This document shows, one piece after another, positions 715 through 50,240 of a stretch of 64,000 nt of DNA; position 1 is the first letter of the stretch, and the number at the start of each line of letters is the position of its first letter. Below the pieces are notes generated by a model. It searched no databases and had not been told where the DNA came from. It was given only the letters and a program-made list of their open reading frames with translations. Location of the stretch: NCBI GenBank assembly GCA_965214095.1, contig OZ243938.1, forward strand, positions 416,001 through 480,000, given 5' to 3'. This stretch comes from Candidatus Poribacteria bacterium. Its GTDB lineage: Bacteria; Poribacteria; WGA-4E; WGA-3G. The position numbers and the translations under genes are program-made.

Positions 715-1467
715 CTATTGTTTGGTATAATCTGAACGTAACACAAATGTATGCTGTGTCCAGCTGCCTGTGCGCACATCAAGCTCAGTTTCAATTGCCA
801 TAATATCTTCTAATTCCCCGTAAGTAGTGGAATCTTCGGAATTAGCAAACTCAAACTCAACCAACCGGTGTGGGGATTCACCATAGTAATTGTCATAAGA
901 TGCTATTGATTTCAACTGATCCGGTCCGACTGTTATAGAAGAAACGGAATCAACCCAATCCAGATATGCTTGTTTTCCACCAAGTGGATAATCAATTAAC
1001 AAAACACCTCTAACAGGCCAGTTGCCTTCCTCTTCTTTCGCGTAATCGGAACGTTGAATAAATGTGTTCACTGTGACTTTGCTTGTATGGTTCGGTAGGT
1101 CACCCATAATTTTCGCTATTTCTGGACGATTCAGGTAAGTTGCTGCATCAAGAAAACTATCAAATTCATACTCAATGAGTCGATTTGGACTCATTGTTTC
1201 GTCTTGATTATCATAAGACCTTATCCGATTAACCTCTTCGGGAGCCTGAAGAATATCCACAACAGATAAAACCCATGCAATATAAGCATCTTTCCCGCCT
1301 TCTGGGTAATCAATTAACAAAACCAACTTGACTGGAATCTCTTCTCCCATATTATCTTCGGTCTGAACAGAATCCATTACGTCTCTAACTGTCGTACATC
1401 CTGCAATAGCCACAAATACTATGAAAAGTGTGAAAAATGAAATTAGTCTAAAGGTCTGAGTCATCAT
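715..1467 (-). CDS. Putative lipoprotein with two tandem homologous ~100-aa domains (possibly dimeric alpha/beta-barrel type)
   Basis: Signal peptide with lipobox IAGC; internal repeat LLIDYPEGGKDAYIAWV / LLIDYPLGGKQAYLDWV and SYDN..SPNRLIEYEF / SYDN..SPHRLVEFEF. Confidence 0.7.
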   Translation of the reverse strand: MMTQTFRLISFFTLFIVFVAIAGCTTVRDVMDSVQTEDNMGEEIPVKLVLLIDYPEGGKDAYIAWVLSVVDILQAPEEVNRIRSYDNQDETMSPNRLIEYEFDSFLDAATYLNRPEIAKIMGDLPNHTSKVTVNTFIQRSDYAKEEEGNWPVRGVLLIDYPLGGKQAYLDWVDSVSSITVGPDQLKSIASYDNYYGESPHRLVEFEFANSEDSTTYGELEDIMAIETELDVRTGSWTQHTFVLRSDYTKQ

Positions 1468-1831
1468 TGTCCCTCCTATGATAACAATTATTTTTTGGTA
1501 AATCTACAGTTTGATTATATAGGGCATTTATTTTGAGTTAACATTTGTAAGAAAATCCGAAATCTAAACAACCCTATTCAACAATATTAAAAGAAACTTA
1601 TAACTATTCTATACAATATGTGTAAAAATTCAAGTTTTAAATTCGGAACGATGAGAATATAGTGTTGATCTATCATTGATCTGTGATAATGTCCGATAGC
1701 ATGAATAAAAATACCTTCAGGTTTTTGTTGAAATGTTTTTAATTATCATAGATCCTAATTTGACAATAGAAATGGCTGGACAGCAATCTGACTGAACGGA
1801 ATTTGGCAACAGCCCCTTAAACGAACACTAT

Positions 1832-2010
1832 TTATACAATTGATTCATCATGAAAACCGTGTTGCGCAAGTTCTGTAGATGCGTCTGTCCAAACAACTCG
1901 CGCGTGTTTAACAGCCGTAATTGCCTCTGCTTTCGTAGGTTCTGGTACCTTCCCCGGGTAACGAGCATCAGCCAACAAACCGTTTCTGCAAAGACCTCAG
2001 TCGTTTGCAT
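1832..2010 (-). pseudogene. HEPN-domain toxin remnant with internal deletion and frameshift
   Basis: ATG overlaps the MNT end; MQTTEVFAETVCWL, then in another frame ADARYPGKVPEPTKAEAITAVKHARVVW..., a HEPN C-terminal RYPG segment; the middle of the gene is missing. Confidence 0.65.
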
Positions 2011-2317
2011 AGAGTATTTTTCCTTCTTGTTGGGCATAGCGCAGCACCGATCCGATCCGCGTACGGTTACGTTCCAGTTCTTCTGGTGTTGTGACAACGA
2101 TGTCCTTCGCTACGGGTAAGTCAGCCAAGGCGACGCGGATGTCAACAGCCGTTTTCCGCTTATCCTTATCTGCAAGTTTCTCAAAAACTATAAGCAAATC
2201 TATGTCACTATGCCGATCAGCATCCCCTCGTGCTTGTGAACCGAAGAGGATAATCTGCAACGGATCAAAGTCACGGATAATGCGATCTGTCATGATTGAG
2301 ATGAATTCGTTATTCAT
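1997..2317 (-). CDS. Minimal nucleotidyltransferase (MNT) antitoxin
   Basis: LFGSQARGDADRHSDIDLLIV signature (GS-x10-DxD), 106 aa. Confidence 0.9.
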   Translation of the reverse strand: MNNEFISIMTDRIIRDFDPLQIILFGSQARGDADRHSDIDLLIVFEKLADKDKRKTAVDIRVALADLPVAKDIVVTTPEELERNRTRIGSVLRYAQQEGKILYAND

Positions 2318-2654
2318 TTTTCTTTTTCCTTAGAGCATTTTTTGGAAAGTCCAGAAATGTGGATACTTGCTATTATAACATAATTCAAGGGAGAATTGAA
2401 AACCTGTTAGGGTGTGTAAAGTTCTTGCACAAATCCCTCATAAGTCCTTATAGTGCGTGGTCTCCGCGCCCCGCCATCTTTCAATAATGCTTGTAGGGTG
2501 AGTCTCTGTGCCCGCTATCTTTCAATCTATCAACAACTGCAGGAAACAGAAAACCGCCCCTACAATGTGTAGAGAGACGTTACCTGATATGAAAACTTGA
2601 ATTGGTACAAAAACTCTGCCGATTCTGAAAATATACGCGATAAGTTTCAACTAA

Positions 2655-44648: not shown

Positions 44649-45713
44649 TTATTTCGCGCCGCGTGGGTAGGAACCGAGTATCTTTACATCTCTACACAAG
44701 TCATCAAGATTGTCAAGCACGGAATGGACGTTGTCATCGTCAAGATGTCCTTCAATATCAGCAAAAAAGATGTATTCCCAAGGACTACTACGTGATGGAA
44801 GTGATTCTATATAACAGAGACTAAGGTCATGCTTCTTTAACACACCCAGAATTTCATACAACGCTCCGACCCTATCCCTGATTGCAAAAAAGATAGACGT
44901 ACAGTCATTCCCTGTGCTACCTATAACTTGGTTACCGATGACAAGAAACCGAGTCGCATTATCCGGTTCATCCATAATGGAATCAACAATCACAGGTACA
45001 TCGTATATCTCGCTGGCTAACTTACTTGCAATAGCTGCAGTGTTTGGTTCCTCTGCTGCACGCATAGCAGCATCAGATGTACTTACCACTTCAACCTGCT
45101 CAATAGATTTCATGTTCTTATTGATCCATATTCTGCATTGAGCGAATGGTTGACTATGAGAATAGATACGTTTTATCTCATTAAGCGGCGACTTTGAGAT
45201 GAGATGGTGTCTGATGGGTTGGTATATTTCCGCACAAATATTTAGAGAGGTATGTTGAAAACGTTCCAACACATCACGGACAGTCCCGAAGACTGAGTTC
45301 TGAATTGCAACTACTCCAAAATCAGCGCGTTCTGTTTCCACTTCCGTAAAAATATCGGTTTGAGGAGTAATAGGAACCATTACCGAATAAGCTCCAAAAA
45401 AGGAGAGACTTGCCATGTGTCCGAAACTACCGGACGGACCAAGAAACGCAACCCGATTTGGGTGTTGCACAGAACGTGAAGCAAGAAAAATTTCTGTCCA
45501 AATCTTTTCTATCGCTTCTAAAGGATATATTCCATGATTCAACGCTTTTAGACGATCGAGTATTTCATTCTCACGATGTGGGACATGAACGACTCCACCC
45601 GTATCGGCTTTTAAGGAACCTACCTTCTTTGATACCTCTGCGCGTTCTTGAAGTAATCGTAAAAGTTGTTCGTCTATATTGTTTATTTCTTCACGTAATT
45701 CTTTCAAGTCCAA
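44649..45713 (-). CDS. pheA: Chorismate mutase/prephenate dehydratase (P-protein)
   Basis: LREEI..IDEQL CM domain; AFLGP.GSF, SHSQ, NATRF, ACT domain, LGSYP. Confidence 0.95.
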   Translation of the reverse strand: MDLKELREEINNIDEQLLRLLQERAEVSKKVGSLKADTGGVVHVPHRENEILDRLKALNHGIYPLEAIEKIWTEIFLASRSVQHPNRVAFLGPSGSFGHMASLSFFGAYSVMVPITPQTDIFTEVETERADFGVVAIQNSVFGTVRDVLERFQHTSLNICAEIYQPIRHHLISKSPLNEIKRIYSHSQPFAQCRIWINKNMKSIEQVEVVSTSDAAMRAAEEPNTAAIASKLASEIYDVPVIVDSIMDEPDNATRFLVIGNQVIGSTGNDCTSIFFAIRDRVGALYEILGVLKKHDLSLCYIESLPSRSSPWEYIFFADIEGHLDDDNVHSVLDNLDDLCRDVKILGSYPRGAK

Positions 45714-45838: not shown

Positions 45839-46084
45839 TTAGCTGCTTAACTTATTCATTGCAGCAATCATTTCATCATCTGACGGATTGTTTTCTACCA
45901 TCTCAACAAAATCTTCAGCTGAAATATTATGTTCCTCCAGGAACATTTTGTCCTGTGGTCACGGATAAATATATTCTCCGATGATGCCTTGAAGTTTTGC
46001 ATTTGCTTTATCGGATATTCTTGCAAGCCAAGGTATCCCTCCGATTATCATATCTCTGTGACGTGGTTTCCAATCAAGTGACAT
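45839..46084 (-). CDS. DUF5069-like 81-aa protein with in-frame TGA at codon 42 (putative selenocysteine)
   Basis: RBS AAGGAGGTG; MSLDWKPRHRDMIIGGIPWLARISDKANAKLQGIIGEYIYP-TGA-PQDKMFLEEHNISAEDFVEMVENNPSDDEMIAAMNKLSS-TAA; family resemblance continues on both sides of the TGA. Confidence 0.75.
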
Positions 46085-46145
46085 CTGTTTCACCTCCTTC
46101 TTGAAATGTCAGTGTTCTCTAAACTATACGGGTTGTAAGTTCATA

Positions 46146-46811
46146 TTATGTTTGTGTGCGTAGTCGCTCAATCTCCGCTAAAGCATGAGCAAGTTTTTTC
46201 TCAGCAATTTCAGCGCGTGCTTCAGCAGCATCTACGCGTTCTTGTGGTGGTTGCAACCATTGCGAGCGGTTTGGATCATATAGCCGTAACATGCCTGCAT
46301 GTTCACCTAACTCCAAACCTAAAGTTTCTGAAGGGAGCCGGTCATTCACTGAAGCAATTTCTTGATATTCACCGTCAATCAGTTTATATCCGACAAAACT
46401 CGGTATTATTTGACCCAACGGATCATATATGTAATATTCTTTTACCGACAGAACTGAAGCATAAAGTTCCTTCTTCTCTCCAATATCTTTTGATACAGTC
46501 TTTGGACTTGCTACTTCTAATACAAAATCAGGTGTATTCGCTTCTTCCCATATCAAGAATGTTCGTCTTAGTTTCTTTTCTACACCGAATGCAACGAAAA
46601 CATCAGGTGAGAGACATTTTTTAGGGTTACCTTCAACGTAATACATCAGTATGTTTCCCGATACGTAAACATCTTTATCGTGTTTATAATGGCCTTCAAG
46701 CATTAGGATGAAATCCATCATTAACTTCCGGTGCTGATCGGTTTCAGCCATAGGTTCTCCGTCTGATTCCGGATAGACTATTGTCGGCGCAGCGTGTATT
46801 TTTTTCTGCAT
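46146..46811 (-). CDS. Uma2-family endonuclease-fold protein with C-terminal coiled coil
   Basis: YPESDGEPMAET, SPDVFV, PDFVLEVAS, EYYIYDP; paralog of 30776-31543. Confidence 0.9.
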   Translation of the reverse strand: MQKKIHAAPTIVYPESDGEPMAETDQHRKLMMDFILMLEGHYKHDKDVYVSGNILMYYVEGNPKKCLSPDVFVAFGVEKKLRRTFLIWEEANTPDFVLEVASPKTVSKDIGEKKELYASVLSVKEYYIYDPLGQIIPSFVGYKLIDGEYQEIASVNDRLPSETLGLELGEHAGMLRLYDPNRSQWLQPPQERVDAAEARAEIAEKKLAHALAEIERLRTQT

Positions 46812-47036: not shown

Positions 47037-50000
47037 TTACTCTTGAGCACTTTCTTCAAGTTGTTTCAAGGTTTGTTCTAAGAGCTGTTGATTACGTCCA
47101 TATTCAGCCCAATCGCCACTACGTTGTGCCTGCAGAGCATTGTTGAAATAACTGTTCGCCTGTTGAATCAAGCCGCGTACTGATGTTGACACTTGTGGAT
47201 CACCGGTTGTGTCTAATGTTACATCAGCAACAGAAGGTTCGTTTTGTGAACCGATTCTATTAAGGAACATCTCTCTGAGGGCATCATCAAGCGTTTCACC
47301 CCAAACAATTTGCGGATTGTCGTCTTCTATTTTCTTATAGCCAACTACCACCCTGCGTAGTTCAGGTATCGCAGTATCCTCATCATCCGATTGAATATAG
47401 ATCGGTTCAACATATAAAAGCGAGTCATTCATCGGCAAGATCAACAAGTTACCACGGAGTACACGAGTCCCTTGAGTGTTCCACAGACTAATCTGCTGTG
47501 AAATCTCTGGTTGTTGACTAATAAAGATCTCAGCCTGCATCGGACCGGGAACCAATGCTTGTTTAGGAAATCTATAGACAAGCAGTTGTCCATATTGTGG
47601 TAAATCACATCGTGCGCCGAGCCATGCAATGAGATTCGGCTTGTTTCGTGGTGTGTATGGAAGCATCAACATAAACTCCGATTTCTCTTCACCAGGGAGT
47701 TTGAGAATGACATAGTATGGCTCAACAGGTTGGACATTACTTGGCAATTTTCTCTCAACTCTAACTTGAGGCGTAAGTGGACTGGTAGGCTGCGGCGTAG
47801 TTACCTGTTGGGTTTGTGCGTCCGTATTGTCATACATTTCCGTGCCAATTTCCCACTGGTCTTCACTCGCATAGAATGTAATTGGGTCTTTCATGTGGTA
47901 ATCTTGATAGACACGGGACTGGATGAGGAACATCGTTGTGGGATAACGTATATGAGATTGCAAGTCTTCAGGCATTTCGTCAAATGACTTGAAAAGGTCA
48001 GGGAATATCTTACGATAACATTCAACGATAGGATCTTGTAACTGATCTATCAAGTAAAAATCAACCGAACCGTGGTATGCATCAACAACAACCTTTACAG
48101 AATTACGTATATAGTTTCCCCACGGTTTCCCATCACGTTGCGTTACAGAACCTGCTAGTCTTCTACGTTGAATGAATTTCTGCATTGAGACCGAATATGG
48201 ATAGCGATGCGTGATTGTATACGCGTCAATCATCCAGACAAGTCTTCCTTCATGTATGACTGCATACGGATCACCATCATATCGTAAGAATGGCGCAATC
48301 TTGTGAATACGTCTCTTAATGTTACGTTCATATAACACTTTACTTGATGAATCAATTTCACCCGGAAGCACAAACTTGATTTCGTTATTAAACTTGAGCA
48401 TATATACAAATTTACGCCAGAATGATGAGAGTTCAATGCCACCAGTGCCTTGATAGGCGTAATTCGCGTATTGTTGACCTGTTTGCGGATAGTCAAACTC
48501 AAGTAGAGATTCAGTGCGTTTTGGATGCACTATGGCATACCTATCTGTGCGTTCTCCGTAATAGATACGGGGACCTGGTTCTGCATTGAACCTGTGCGGC
48601 CATTCATCTTCATATTCAATCGGCGGTAAACCCTTGATATACATGTTAGGACTTCCATCGTCAATTTCATTCACAGGACTGACAACAGCACCATATCCGT
48701 GTGTATATGTATAGGTCTGTTTATACCAATCGTTCTTGACAGCGTCGGGTAGTTCGTTAATATTGAGTTCACGTGCCGAGAGCATCACTTGCTGGATGTT
48801 GTCGTTGACTAAGTATCTGTCAATATCAACATCAAAGAAATCGTACTGAGAACGCAATTCTTGGAGTTGTCTGAAAGTTCTGCGTAATGGACGCCAGTCC
48901 CACAGTCTAATACTATTCAGAACAGGTTCGTTTTCGGGACTCGTTATATCAGCATAAGAAAGTGTTTCTGTAATGGGGTATTCTTGCTCGGTTACAGTAT
49001 TATTCTCTAAACCGTAAGCATTCAGTGTTGCTTTAATATTATAGTTGATATATTGTTCTTCTAATACCTGTTTATTAGGTTCCACCCGCCATACCTGAAT
49101 AAGTCTTGGATACAATTGACCAAGGAATCCTGCAGCGATAAAAATTATGAGTGCAGTAATTGCATATTTATTTTGTTTCAAGAAGATGTTTATAACAAAT
49201 ACTGCAGCACAAATTCCTGTGATGACCAACATAATCCATAGGATGGGAAGTCGGGCGTTTATTGCTGCAAATCCACCACCACCCCTTACAATATCGTTAG
49301 ACGTGTATAAGAGGTCATACATTACAAAAAGGTAGTTCCATGCACGAAATAGTAGTGTTAATGCAACTAAGATGAATAGATGTGTTTTCACGCGGGCGGG
49401 AGGGCGAAAACGAAATTGATTTGTATCACCTGTGATTAATCCGTGGAAAAAGTAGATTATAACCGCAAATATAGTAACTAATAGAAAAGTACCGAACAAT
49501 GTGCCGATGATATATCTCTCCATCGGCATTTTGAAGACATAATACGCAACATTCTTATCAAATATTGGATCTCGTGCAAGCGATTTGAAATACGCTTTCT
49601 GTCCAATTTCTGCTTGAATTGTCTGATCTAATTGGAGTCCAATCGGTTTCCCATCTTCCTTTAATAACACATTCTGGACTTGTGCAACAATAGGATCATT
49701 TCCATCAATATAGATACTTACTTCATCACCGACTTGTATACGTTTTGCTTCAAGTTCCAATGTTTGTACAGATATTTCATTAGAATCTACATTTTCGTCA
49801 ACTACAATAGGTGTAGCGGATTGGAAATTTAGATTCTCTGCGTGTGTATAACGTAAAAAAACTTCCCACTGTTCAGTCGCAGAATATCCCATTAGTACAC
49901 TAAACAGAACTGCAAGTACCGTGAGTCCTCCGTAAATCATCTTACGGGTACTTTTATCACCACCAGTAAATTCTGTTCCACCAAGGAATGCGGGACTGAG

Positions 50001-50240
50001 ATGGGCTGGGGTAAACCGATAAATGATATATAGATTTACCAAAAGGATTATGAGGTAGACAATTCCAACGCTCACTCCGACGAAGATTTTTGTTGTAAGT
50101 ATCTTCAGGTATACGCTGGGATATTGTACCATTTCAAACCATAGTAAATCAGGGAATATGTTGACCCATGCTGCAATTACACCACCGAGTACCGCTAAAA
50201 TTCCTATAGAGATAATATAACGTTTTAGTCGTTTTTCCAT
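47037..50240 (-). CDS. UPF0182 family membrane protein
   Basis: DLLWF, DPIF..NVAYYVF, IRLWD, YTHGYG, PRIYYGE, APFL..DGDPY, NYIRNSVK, RGNLLILP, PEL.RVVV. Confidence 0.92.
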   Translation of the reverse strand: MEKRLKRYIISIGILAVLGGVIAAWVNIFPDLLWFEMVQYPSVYLKILTTKIFVGVSVGIVYLIILLVNLYIIYRFTPAHLSPAFLGGTEFTGGDKSTRKMIYGGLTVLAVLFSVLMGYSATEQWEVFLRYTHAENLNFQSATPIVVDENVDSNEISVQTLELEAKRIQVGDEVSIYIDGNDPIVAQVQNVLLKEDGKPIGLQLDQTIQAEIGQKAYFKSLARDPIFDKNVAYYVFKMPMERYIIGTLFGTFLLVTIFAVIIYFFHGLITGDTNQFRFRPPARVKTHLFILVALTLLFRAWNYLFVMYDLLYTSNDIVRGGGGFAAINARLPILWIMLVITGICAAVFVINIFLKQNKYAITALIIFIAAGFLGQLYPRLIQVWRVEPNKQVLEEQYINYNIKATLNAYGLENNTVTEQEYPITETLSYADITSPENEPVLNSIRLWDWRPLRRTFRQLQELRSQYDFFDVDIDRYLVNDNIQQVMLSARELNINELPDAVKNDWYKQTYTYTHGYGAVVSPVNEIDDGSPNMYIKGLPPIEYEDEWPHRFNAEPGPRIYYGERTDRYAIVHPKRTESLLEFDYPQTGQQYANYAYQGTGGIELSSFWRKFVYMLKFNNEIKFVLPGEIDSSSKVLYERNIKRRIHKIAPFLRYDGDPYAVIHEGRLVWMIDAYTITHRYPYSVSMQKFIQRRRLAGSVTQRDGKPWGNYIRNSVKVVVDAYHGSVDFYLIDQLQDPIVECYRKIFPDLFKSFDEMPEDLQSHIRYPTTMFLIQSRVYQDYHMKDPITFYASEDQWEIGTEMYDNTDAQTQQVTTPQPTSPLTPQVRVERKLPSNVQPVEPYYVILKLPGEEKSEFMLMLPYTPRNKPNLIAWLGARCDLPQYGQLLVYRFPKQALVPGPMQAEIFISQQPEISQQISLWNTQGTRVLRGNLLILPMNDSLLYVEPIYIQSDDEDTAIPELRRVVVGYKKIEDDNPQIVWGETLDDALREMFLNRIGSQNEPSVADVTLDTTGDPQVSTSVRGLIQQANSYFNNALQAQRSGDWAEYGRNQQLLEQTLKQLEESAQE

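Follow-up and report, generated by a model that had tools for sequence, protein, structure and literature searches.

Does the TGA codon in the middle of a small minus-strand gene of this stretch of DNA end the protein, mark a broken gene, or encode selenocysteine (Sec)? The stretch, hereafter the window, comprises 64,000 nucleotides (nt) of a Candidatus Poribacteria genome (assembly GCA_965214095.1, contig OZ243938.1, positions 416,001 to 480,000 of the forward strand), and in it lies an 81-codon open reading frame (ORF), 46084..45839, with TGA at codon 42 and a closing TAA, whose read-through product belongs to DUF5069, a family with a solved structure (3OMD) and no assigned function. The comparative sequence data make it very probable that this ORF is a genuine Sec gene, and one from an uncatalogued family. 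Its parts are the following:

45839..46084 (TAA included), minus strand: coding sequence of the putative short-form DUF5069 selenoprotein, 81 residues, based on the translation with TGA read as Sec (U), the PF16798 match, orthologues and the ratio of nonsynonymous to synonymous substitution (dN/dS)
45959..45961, minus strand: probable Sec codon UGA (codon 42), based on TGA/TGY pairs in orthologues and metagenome loci and on its alignment with a cysteine (Cys) of 3OMD
46091..46099, minus strand: strong ribosome-binding site AAGGAGGTG, 6 nt 5' of the ATG, read from the sequence

Six bases separate AAGGAGGTG (46099-46091) from the ATG start codon (46084-46082), from which 41 sense codons ending in ...GEYIYP lead to the TGA (45961-45959), followed by 39 further sense codons and the TAA (45841-45839). 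The ribosome-binding site, start, codon counts, TGA and TAA given in the first-pass annotation of this locus can all be read directly from the sequence, and its explanation of why the ORF caller had missed the gene, namely that each half is under 60 residues, agrees with the standard ORF list, which holds just two short pieces here (45959..46093, 44 residues, and 45839..45946, 35 residues). Against Pfam DUF5069 (PF16798) the read-through protein scores 51 bits (cut-off 27; E=2.2e-13) in a single alignment that runs across the TGA, with residues 7-78 on profile positions 4-75 of 133. The full 133-position domain is not present; the short form corresponds to its N-terminal core and ends at residue 81.

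The TGA is kept throughout the closest relatives. Sixty-one genomes (the window's own included) from 8 genera and 4 families of a single order were compared, and every best match, at identities from 99 down to 59%, contains one in-frame TGA and no more; an orthologue is present in 168 of the 173 genomes of the class (E<=1e-10), the five misses being family f5 (0/3) and two genomes that are 81% complete. The gene is hence real, far beyond chance. Of 65 loci fetched, one is truncated at a contig end and was left out; from the remaining 64 we extracted the orthologues, in which codon 42 is TGA in 56, TGC in 7 and TGT in 1. The Cys forms are those of all eight genomes of family f8, and these read YPCPAD where the others have YP-TGA-P.D. 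A conserved TGA opposite Cys is the pattern for which the first-pass annotation had proposed that related genomes be checked. Its own observation, that the TGA stands where homologues have Cys, holds in the eight f8 orthologues, in 14 metagenome relatives, in the database proteins P0013 and P0014, and in 3OMD. To call that cysteine conserved proved right for a sub-family and too broad for DUF5069 as a whole: searched with a profile, 1.84 billion representative proteins yielded 694 relatives at E<=0.001, and in the 174 domains of the best 150 of these the site is Cys in 112 and serine (Ser) in 33, the host's own paralogues also having Ser.

The short-form family extends well past the host genome, into several marine lineages. 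Twelve proteins among those best 150 relatives, several of them quite divergent, stop exactly one residue before the site, the signature of truncation at a TGA. One of the twelve, P0080, is without a close counterpart in 176 poribacterial species genomes (best 60-68% over 40-48 residues). Scanning metagenomes with seven such fragments gave 80 loci, 66 with TGA and 14 with TGC or TGT directly after Y-x-Y-P, a biased proportion, the loci having been ranked by likeness to a Sec-form query. The conserved C-terminal half is intact in 61 of the 64 TGA metagenome loci counted, the other three being cut by contig ends. With the site masked, 101 Sec and 19 Cys proteins, all unique (120 in total), were placed on a quick maximum-likelihood tree, on which the two states require 6 changes, as against an average of 18 when labels are shuffled (0/500 as low), and at least three of the changes are forced by well-supported branches; Sec and Cys forms thus appear to have switched at least three times. 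The pairing of UGA with Cys and the presence in other organisms of UGA homologues with a constrained downstream part, both criteria by which selenoproteins are recognised, are found together in this family. In the ESM Atlas, the Cys homologue P0013 retrieves only short DUF5069 clusters, labelled Verrucomicrobiota, Melainabacteria and Vulcanimicrobiota, all below 0.9 and to be taken as a lead only.

Just past the TGA, and inside the ORF, the transcript would form a hairpin of the kind expected of a Sec insertion sequence (SECIS):

45929..45946, minus strand: putative SECIS hairpin, 7-base-pair (bp) stem 45946-45940/45935-45929, loop UGGA 45939-45936

Counted from the UGA, the stem begins after 12 nt and the loop after 19 nt. 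All poribacterial Sec forms have GTTCC-TGGA-GGAAC from 14 nt past the TGA, with the stem extending to 7 bp in the window. Codons 49-52 (F-L-E-E) are frozen among the 56 Sec forms (TTC 56/56, CTG 55/56, GAG 56/56, GAA 56/56), the single TTG exception at codon 50 preserving a G-U pair, while the entropy of the other Leu codons in the gene is about 2 bits; in the eight f8 Cys forms, codon and residue both vary at these positions. Folded as an alignment with RNAalifold, the 56 Sec forms show the hairpin, with some G-C pairs replaced by A-U or G-U; the eight poribacterial Cys forms show nothing comparable. Other clades have different stems at the same offset (AGUUCC/GGAACU, CGCUUCC/GGAAGUG, CGCUUCC/GGGAGCG). 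Across 91 unique Sec sequences, aligned without gaps after three with a one-codon insert had been omitted, the 7-bp helix is 90.1% paired, compared to 77.1 +/- 1.0 in shuffles (0/500 as high) and 26-64% in slid controls. Compensatory changes fill 78 cells of this alignment, pair 18-31 being GC in 70 sequences and CG in 17, and pair 17-32 UA in 30, AU in 20, GC in 15 and GU in 8. No signal was obtained for the same helix on 19 unique Cys sequences (59.4% paired versus 56.2% in shuffles, 72/500 of which reach it), and the UGGA loop is present in 89/91 Sec forms versus 2/19 Cys forms.

The model for bacterial SECIS elements (bSECIS), as described in the accessible text of a 2026 review (PMC13188914), has a loop of 3-9 nt with G in the first two loop positions, an upper stem of 4-16 bp, 16-37 nt from UGA to loop and a minimum free energy (MFE) of <= -7.5 kcal/mol. 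The present hairpin has that geometry, with a 4-nt loop, G at position 2 and then another G, a stem of 5-7 bp and a 19-nt spacing. The mean for 22-nt windows of the Sec forms is -7.5 kcal/mol, and a 76-nt stretch at the locus folds at -18.6 (z = -2.4); comparison with the SECIS of selD was uninformative, the simple MFE fold of selD being weak. The f8 Cys forms, at codons 48-53, keep the 5' arm and loop (GTTCCTGGAG in L076) and have lost the 3' arm, in what looks like a SECIS decaying after a Sec-to-Cys switch. The hairpin also surfaces as a plus-strand terminator-like match.

The genome that carries the gene (5.25 Mb, 94% complete) has the machinery to decode it. The check for selA, selB, selC and selD suggested in the first-pass annotation found all four above curated cut-offs: selA at 616 bits, selB at 355 bits, the gene for tRNA-Sec (selC) at 78 bits directly 3' of selB, and selD at 361 bits, the last with an in-frame TGA of its own and reading KCAG-U-ASK:

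G000:C1:1272212-1273138 (= L001), plus strand: selD, itself a selenoprotein gene, 361 bits, in-frame TGA

The Sec system of the host is clearly in active use. At codon 42 of the DUF5069 gene, the UGA would be decoded as Sec by SelB carrying Sec-tRNA(Sec), with SelB recruited by the hairpin in the ORF (7-bp stem, UGGA loop, 12 nt past the UGA). Sec variants of group 4 hydrogenases occur in nine phyla, Poribacteria being one of them, according to the text of a 2026 paper (PMC13582414). Taken with what that text reports on [NiFeSe] hydrogenases, the DUF5069 selenoprotein points to heavy Sec use in sponge-symbiont Poribacteria.

A UGA could also be read as another residue, by a near-cognate tRNA for tryptophan (Trp), Cys or arginine or through lineage-wide reassignment, and translations with Trp at the site do exist: the public collection has 81-residue entries reading YIYPWPQD (P0002-P0012). 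All of these lie on contigs below 1.3 kb, and the Trp is apparently an artefact of gene callers that fall back to a TGA=W code on short contigs. Other public entries are fragments ending in ...EYIYP, some from NCBI-sourced genomes, and the true Cys forms P0013 and P0014; none has a name. Of the window's 44 long ORFs, 6 close with TGA, as do 11 of the 64 orthologues of the short-form gene itself; TGA is therefore an ordinary stop that has not been reassigned. Moreover, the site aligns with Cys, not with Trp or glycine, the full Sec machinery is present, and a hairpin of bSECIS geometry accompanies the UGA forms and is lost in the Cys forms. Reading of the codon as anything other than Sec is accordingly very unlikely.

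Extremely unlikely, in our judgement, is that translation simply terminates at the UGA to give a 41-residue peptide, the part beyond it being an independent short gene or an RNA element. Since Sec insertion is always in competition with termination, some 41-residue product is to be expected, and in the window's genus an ATG at codon 47 could pass for a restart. That codon, however, is ATG in just 33 of the 56 Sec forms and AAG or another codon in the rest, so that a restart is not conserved. Conservation of the codons past the TGA is, moreover, of the protein type. By pooled Nei-Gojobori estimates for the 40 codons before and the 39 codons after the TGA, dN/dS in 30 same-genus sequences is 0.022 before it and 0.055 after it, at synonymous differences per site (pS) of 0.58 and 0.48 respectively, and over all 56 Sec forms it is 0.046 before and 0.114 after. 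Both halves are therefore protein-coding and constrained, and the dN/dS check downstream of the TGA that had been suggested at the outset returns strong purifying selection, as is found for the first half. The Cys-form homologues and 3OMD, furthermore, are single polypeptides with both halves in one domain, and the read-through protein is modelled as one compact fold over residues 1-81, with a predicted local distance difference test score (pLDDT) of 84.6.

The locus is covered by contigs assembled from sponge RNA (one run) and from metatranscriptomes (two runs), a 509-nt contig spanning 45848-46272, and a 41-nt contig of RNA-library run X15 is identical to 45927-45967. Of the 40 contig differences listed, none falls in the TGA, and 52 more exist beyond those listed. 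DNA carry-over being possible, these contigs are an independent confirmation of the DNA sequence only, and no proof of transcription. That a nonsense change has turned the gene into a pseudogene, or that the TGA is an error of sequencing or assembly, as an in-frame stop in a small ORF would on its own suggest and as public annotation implies by leaving fragments ending in ...EYIYP, is on the conservation data already refuted, given the TGA in 61/61 relatives, 56/64 orthologues and 66/80 metagenome loci, its recurrence in contigs of independent runs including the X15 contig, and a dN/dS of 0.055 at pS 0.48 past the TGA. Separately, in four independent runs the contigs end or fork in the hairpin region (45927-45967), likely because an invariant stretch common to co-occurring strains tangles the assembly graph.

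Besides the ranking bias in the metagenome counts, two sets of observations weigh against the Sec reading. The window's minimal 18-nt hairpin, at -6.9 kcal/mol, falls just short of the bSECIS value of -7.5, which in 22-nt windows is reached by only 51 of the 91 Sec forms (and by 2 of the 19 Cys forms). In addition, selA is above cut-off in seven of the eight Cys-form f8 genomes, and Sec is hence not obligatory for the protein; by the same token, since selA is retained in these genomes, their Cys state is no by-product of machinery loss.

The recoding mechanism is a known one; what is new is the short-form DUF5069 family and its distribution. PF16798/DUF5069 is absent from the 119 prokaryotic selenoprotein families in Table 1 of the 2026 review (PMC13188914), and no NCBIfam model matches the read-through protein at E<=0.01, in line with the suspicion voiced in the first-pass annotation that DUF5069 had not been catalogued. 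Full-text literature searches returned no paper for DUF5069, for PF16798 or for 3OMD with Leptospirillum, and for Poribacteria with selenoprotein they returned the hydrogenase paper only (PMC13582414). The gene adds to the current prokaryotic list an apparently common marine-metagenome family, and one that is systematically mis-annotated, being cut at residue 41 in genomes and given Trp on short contigs.

The product of the Sec gene would be a cytoplasmic selenoprotein of 81 residues with a shortened version of the DUF5069 fold. In the AlphaFold model (pLDDT as above; predicted template modelling score 0.73), a beta-hairpin is followed by four helices, and residue 42 directly precedes helix 2 (residues 43-51). 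The same fold is found in 3OMD, an uncharacterised protein of Leptospirillum rubarum and the only solved DUF5069 structure, with a template modelling (TM) score of 0.84 and 36% identity in Foldseek and Z 12.1 over 79 residues in VIA-align, the model superposing on 3OMD residues 4-82. By hmmsearch (E=3.8e-17), Y-x-C-P-x-D of 3OMD aligns with Y-P-U-P-x-D of the short form. 3OMD differs in having Cys rather than Sec, and 145 residues with a C-terminal extension absent from the 81-residue form. Foldseek returned nothing besides 3OMD at E<=0.001. As to a thioredoxin-like fold, the beta-hairpin and four helices of the model matched no chain besides 3OMD at Z 4.

Sec42 is the only Cys or Sec in all 64 poribacterial orthologues, and the motif of the short form is Y-x-Y-P-U-[PGA]-x-D. 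The host genome's four full-length DUF5069 domains, all with Ser at the site, lie elsewhere:

G000:C1:1620831-1622078 (= L021-L023), plus strand: three tandem full-length DUF5069 domains in a 447-residue frame, Y.YG..SG.D
C1:1896655-1896954: fourth DUF5069 paralogue, single-domain, in a 147-residue frame

Because residue 42 is the sole Cys/Sec, caps the N terminus of helix 2 in the model and is occupied by Ser, Cys or Sec in the family at large, the selenol might be a functional nucleophile or redox centre, a proposal whose chances we consider evenly balanced, and this variable position is a pointer to the residue likely to be active in DUF5069 in general. Lacking an internal resolving Cys, the Sec protein would act with external partners. 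Several results tell against such functional readings: the 64 poribacterial orthologues, with their Y-P-U-P-x-D motif, have no CxxU or UxxC and no conserved second Cys; in a wide VIA search the next-best Z after 3OMD is 3.8, to TetR-like helices that amount to noise, leaving no characterised relative; and gene neighbourhoods differ by clade, with nothing common across clades save a kinase-like protein. Fusions of longer DUF5069 representatives, to Cupin_2 (3 proteins), an AI-2E transporter, DLH and DUF2249, and further to a methyltransferase, an AA_kinase fragment and CO_deh_flav_C, were set aside as a clue to function, the partner set being too mixed and some of the fusions perhaps gene-calling artefacts.

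The neighbours of the gene in the window are these:

47037..50240, minus strand: UPF0182 membrane-protein gene (Pfam UPF0182, 797 bits), the conserved upstream neighbour
46146..46811, minus strand: Uma2-family (putative restriction endonuclease-like) gene (Pfam Uma2, 58.7 bits), between the UPF0182 and selenoprotein genes
44649..45713, minus strand: pheA (chorismate mutase/prephenate dehydratase; Pfam PDT, CM_2, ACT), the conserved downstream neighbour

Of the 64 poribacterial loci, 50 have UPF0182 as the immediate upstream gene and 51 have pheA downstream, in both cases in the orientation of the DUF5069 gene, with median gaps of 62 nt and 95 nt respectively. As UPF0182 ends about 62 nt 5' of the gene in most related loci, the Uma2 gene of the window looks like a local insertion. 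The neighbours in Clade A are RsmD, an HDOD response regulator and SBP_bac_5. In one Sec clade (L227, L228, L231 and L233), a fusion of glutaredoxin and thioredoxin reductase (Grx-TrxR; ~1247-2473, plus strand) ends 24 nt upstream of the gene on the same strand; the fusion has 409 residues, with TIGR01292 at 371 bits and a Grx domain, and is a possible reductant of the selenoprotein. In a Cys-form clade, an FNR-like flavin oxidoreductase (L252:2771-3583, plus strand; NAD_binding_1, FAD_binding_6) starts 16 nt past the DUF5069 gene, the order in L252 being kinase-like gene, DUF5069, reductase.

The kinase-like protein that recurs across clades is an orphan of ~310-390 residues, encoded directly upstream on the same strand in 15 metagenome loci of several clades, some of them near-identical, next to Sec and Cys forms alike. 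Its copies are distant homologues (29% identity over 209 residues). It matches no Pfam or NCBIfam family and no PDB sequence, and database searches gave two homologues only, both without a name. With the copy of L252 type as query, a homologue was found in the window's own genome; with the copy of L222 type, nothing was found there:

G000:C1:1815481-1816548 (= L265:1471-2538), minus strand: orphan kinase-like protein, 356 residues, E=1.1e-27

The modelled structure (pLDDT 90.8) has the fold of choline kinases and aminoglycoside phosphotransferases (ChoK/APH), with 316 PDB matches at E<=0.001, and the invariant residues include D205, N210, I221, F223 and E232-R-R234. From this model, the protein appears to represent an unannotated kinase-like family. 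It occurs in 167 of 176 poribacterial genomes and is absent from f5 (0/3), f10 (0/2) and f11 (0/1), the families that also lack the selenoprotein. Its adjacency upstream of DUF5069 in other clades and this co-occurrence in Poribacteria make the ChoK/APH-fold protein a candidate partner of the selenoprotein, tentatively put forward and on the whole doubtful. Against a partnership stand the lack of adjacency in Poribacteria, where the kinase-like gene lies ~1.35 Mb away in the host genome, and the small number of independent absences, two or three at the most and all in related genomes, on which the co-occurrence is based. A complex prediction for the L252 Cys-form DUF5069 and its kinase-like neighbour (score 0.01, mark 0.32) speaks neither for nor against binding. 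The kinase-fold link nevertheless offers a testable route to the function of the selenoprotein. In a wider and distinctly improbable scheme, the Ser/Cys/Sec site would supply the catalytic nucleophile of a small, hitherto unrecognised enzyme or carrier that lacks the thioredoxin fold and shares a two-protein pathway with the ChoK/APH-fold kinase; one possibility within it is that the selenolate attacks or accepts a small molecule activated by the kinase. If true, conservation of the pair would reach from the sponge-symbiont Poribacteria into other marine lineages, and the chemistry would be a new selenium-dependent one and not that of a further thiol-disulfide oxidoreductase.

Among known selenoproteins, those of DUF3179, DUF1858 and DUF523 (Zhang et al. 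2026; PMC13188914) are the closest in kind: they likewise have one UGA opposite Cys, an intragenic hairpin, selA/B/C/D in the genome and membership of a family without an assigned function, and the evidence is of the same type as for the DUF5069 short form, namely Sec/Cys pairs, SECIS and conservation. Most families of that list carry a UxxC/CxxU-like motif, whereas the DUF5069 short form has a single Sec and no second Cys. An earlier candidate, 'hypothetical protein GOS_A', is described in the accessible text of Zhang & Gladyshev (2008; PMC2398784) as lacking a conserved domain and comprising 155 Cys and 2 Sec sequences, and was not carried into the 2026 inventory (PMC13188914). Like the present family, it is a marine-metagenome selenoprotein candidate with many Cys homologues; compared by this description only, the two may or may not be the same family. 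In its hairpin, the DUF5069 gene resembles the fdhF-type bSECIS of E. coli, also a stem-loop in the coding region just past the UGA with a small loop that has G at position 2, but it is set apart by its very small size and by a loop near-invariant across distant clades. An 18-nt hairpin with a near-invariant UGGA loop would make a compact SECIS for studies of recognition by SelB and for selenoprotein gene finders.

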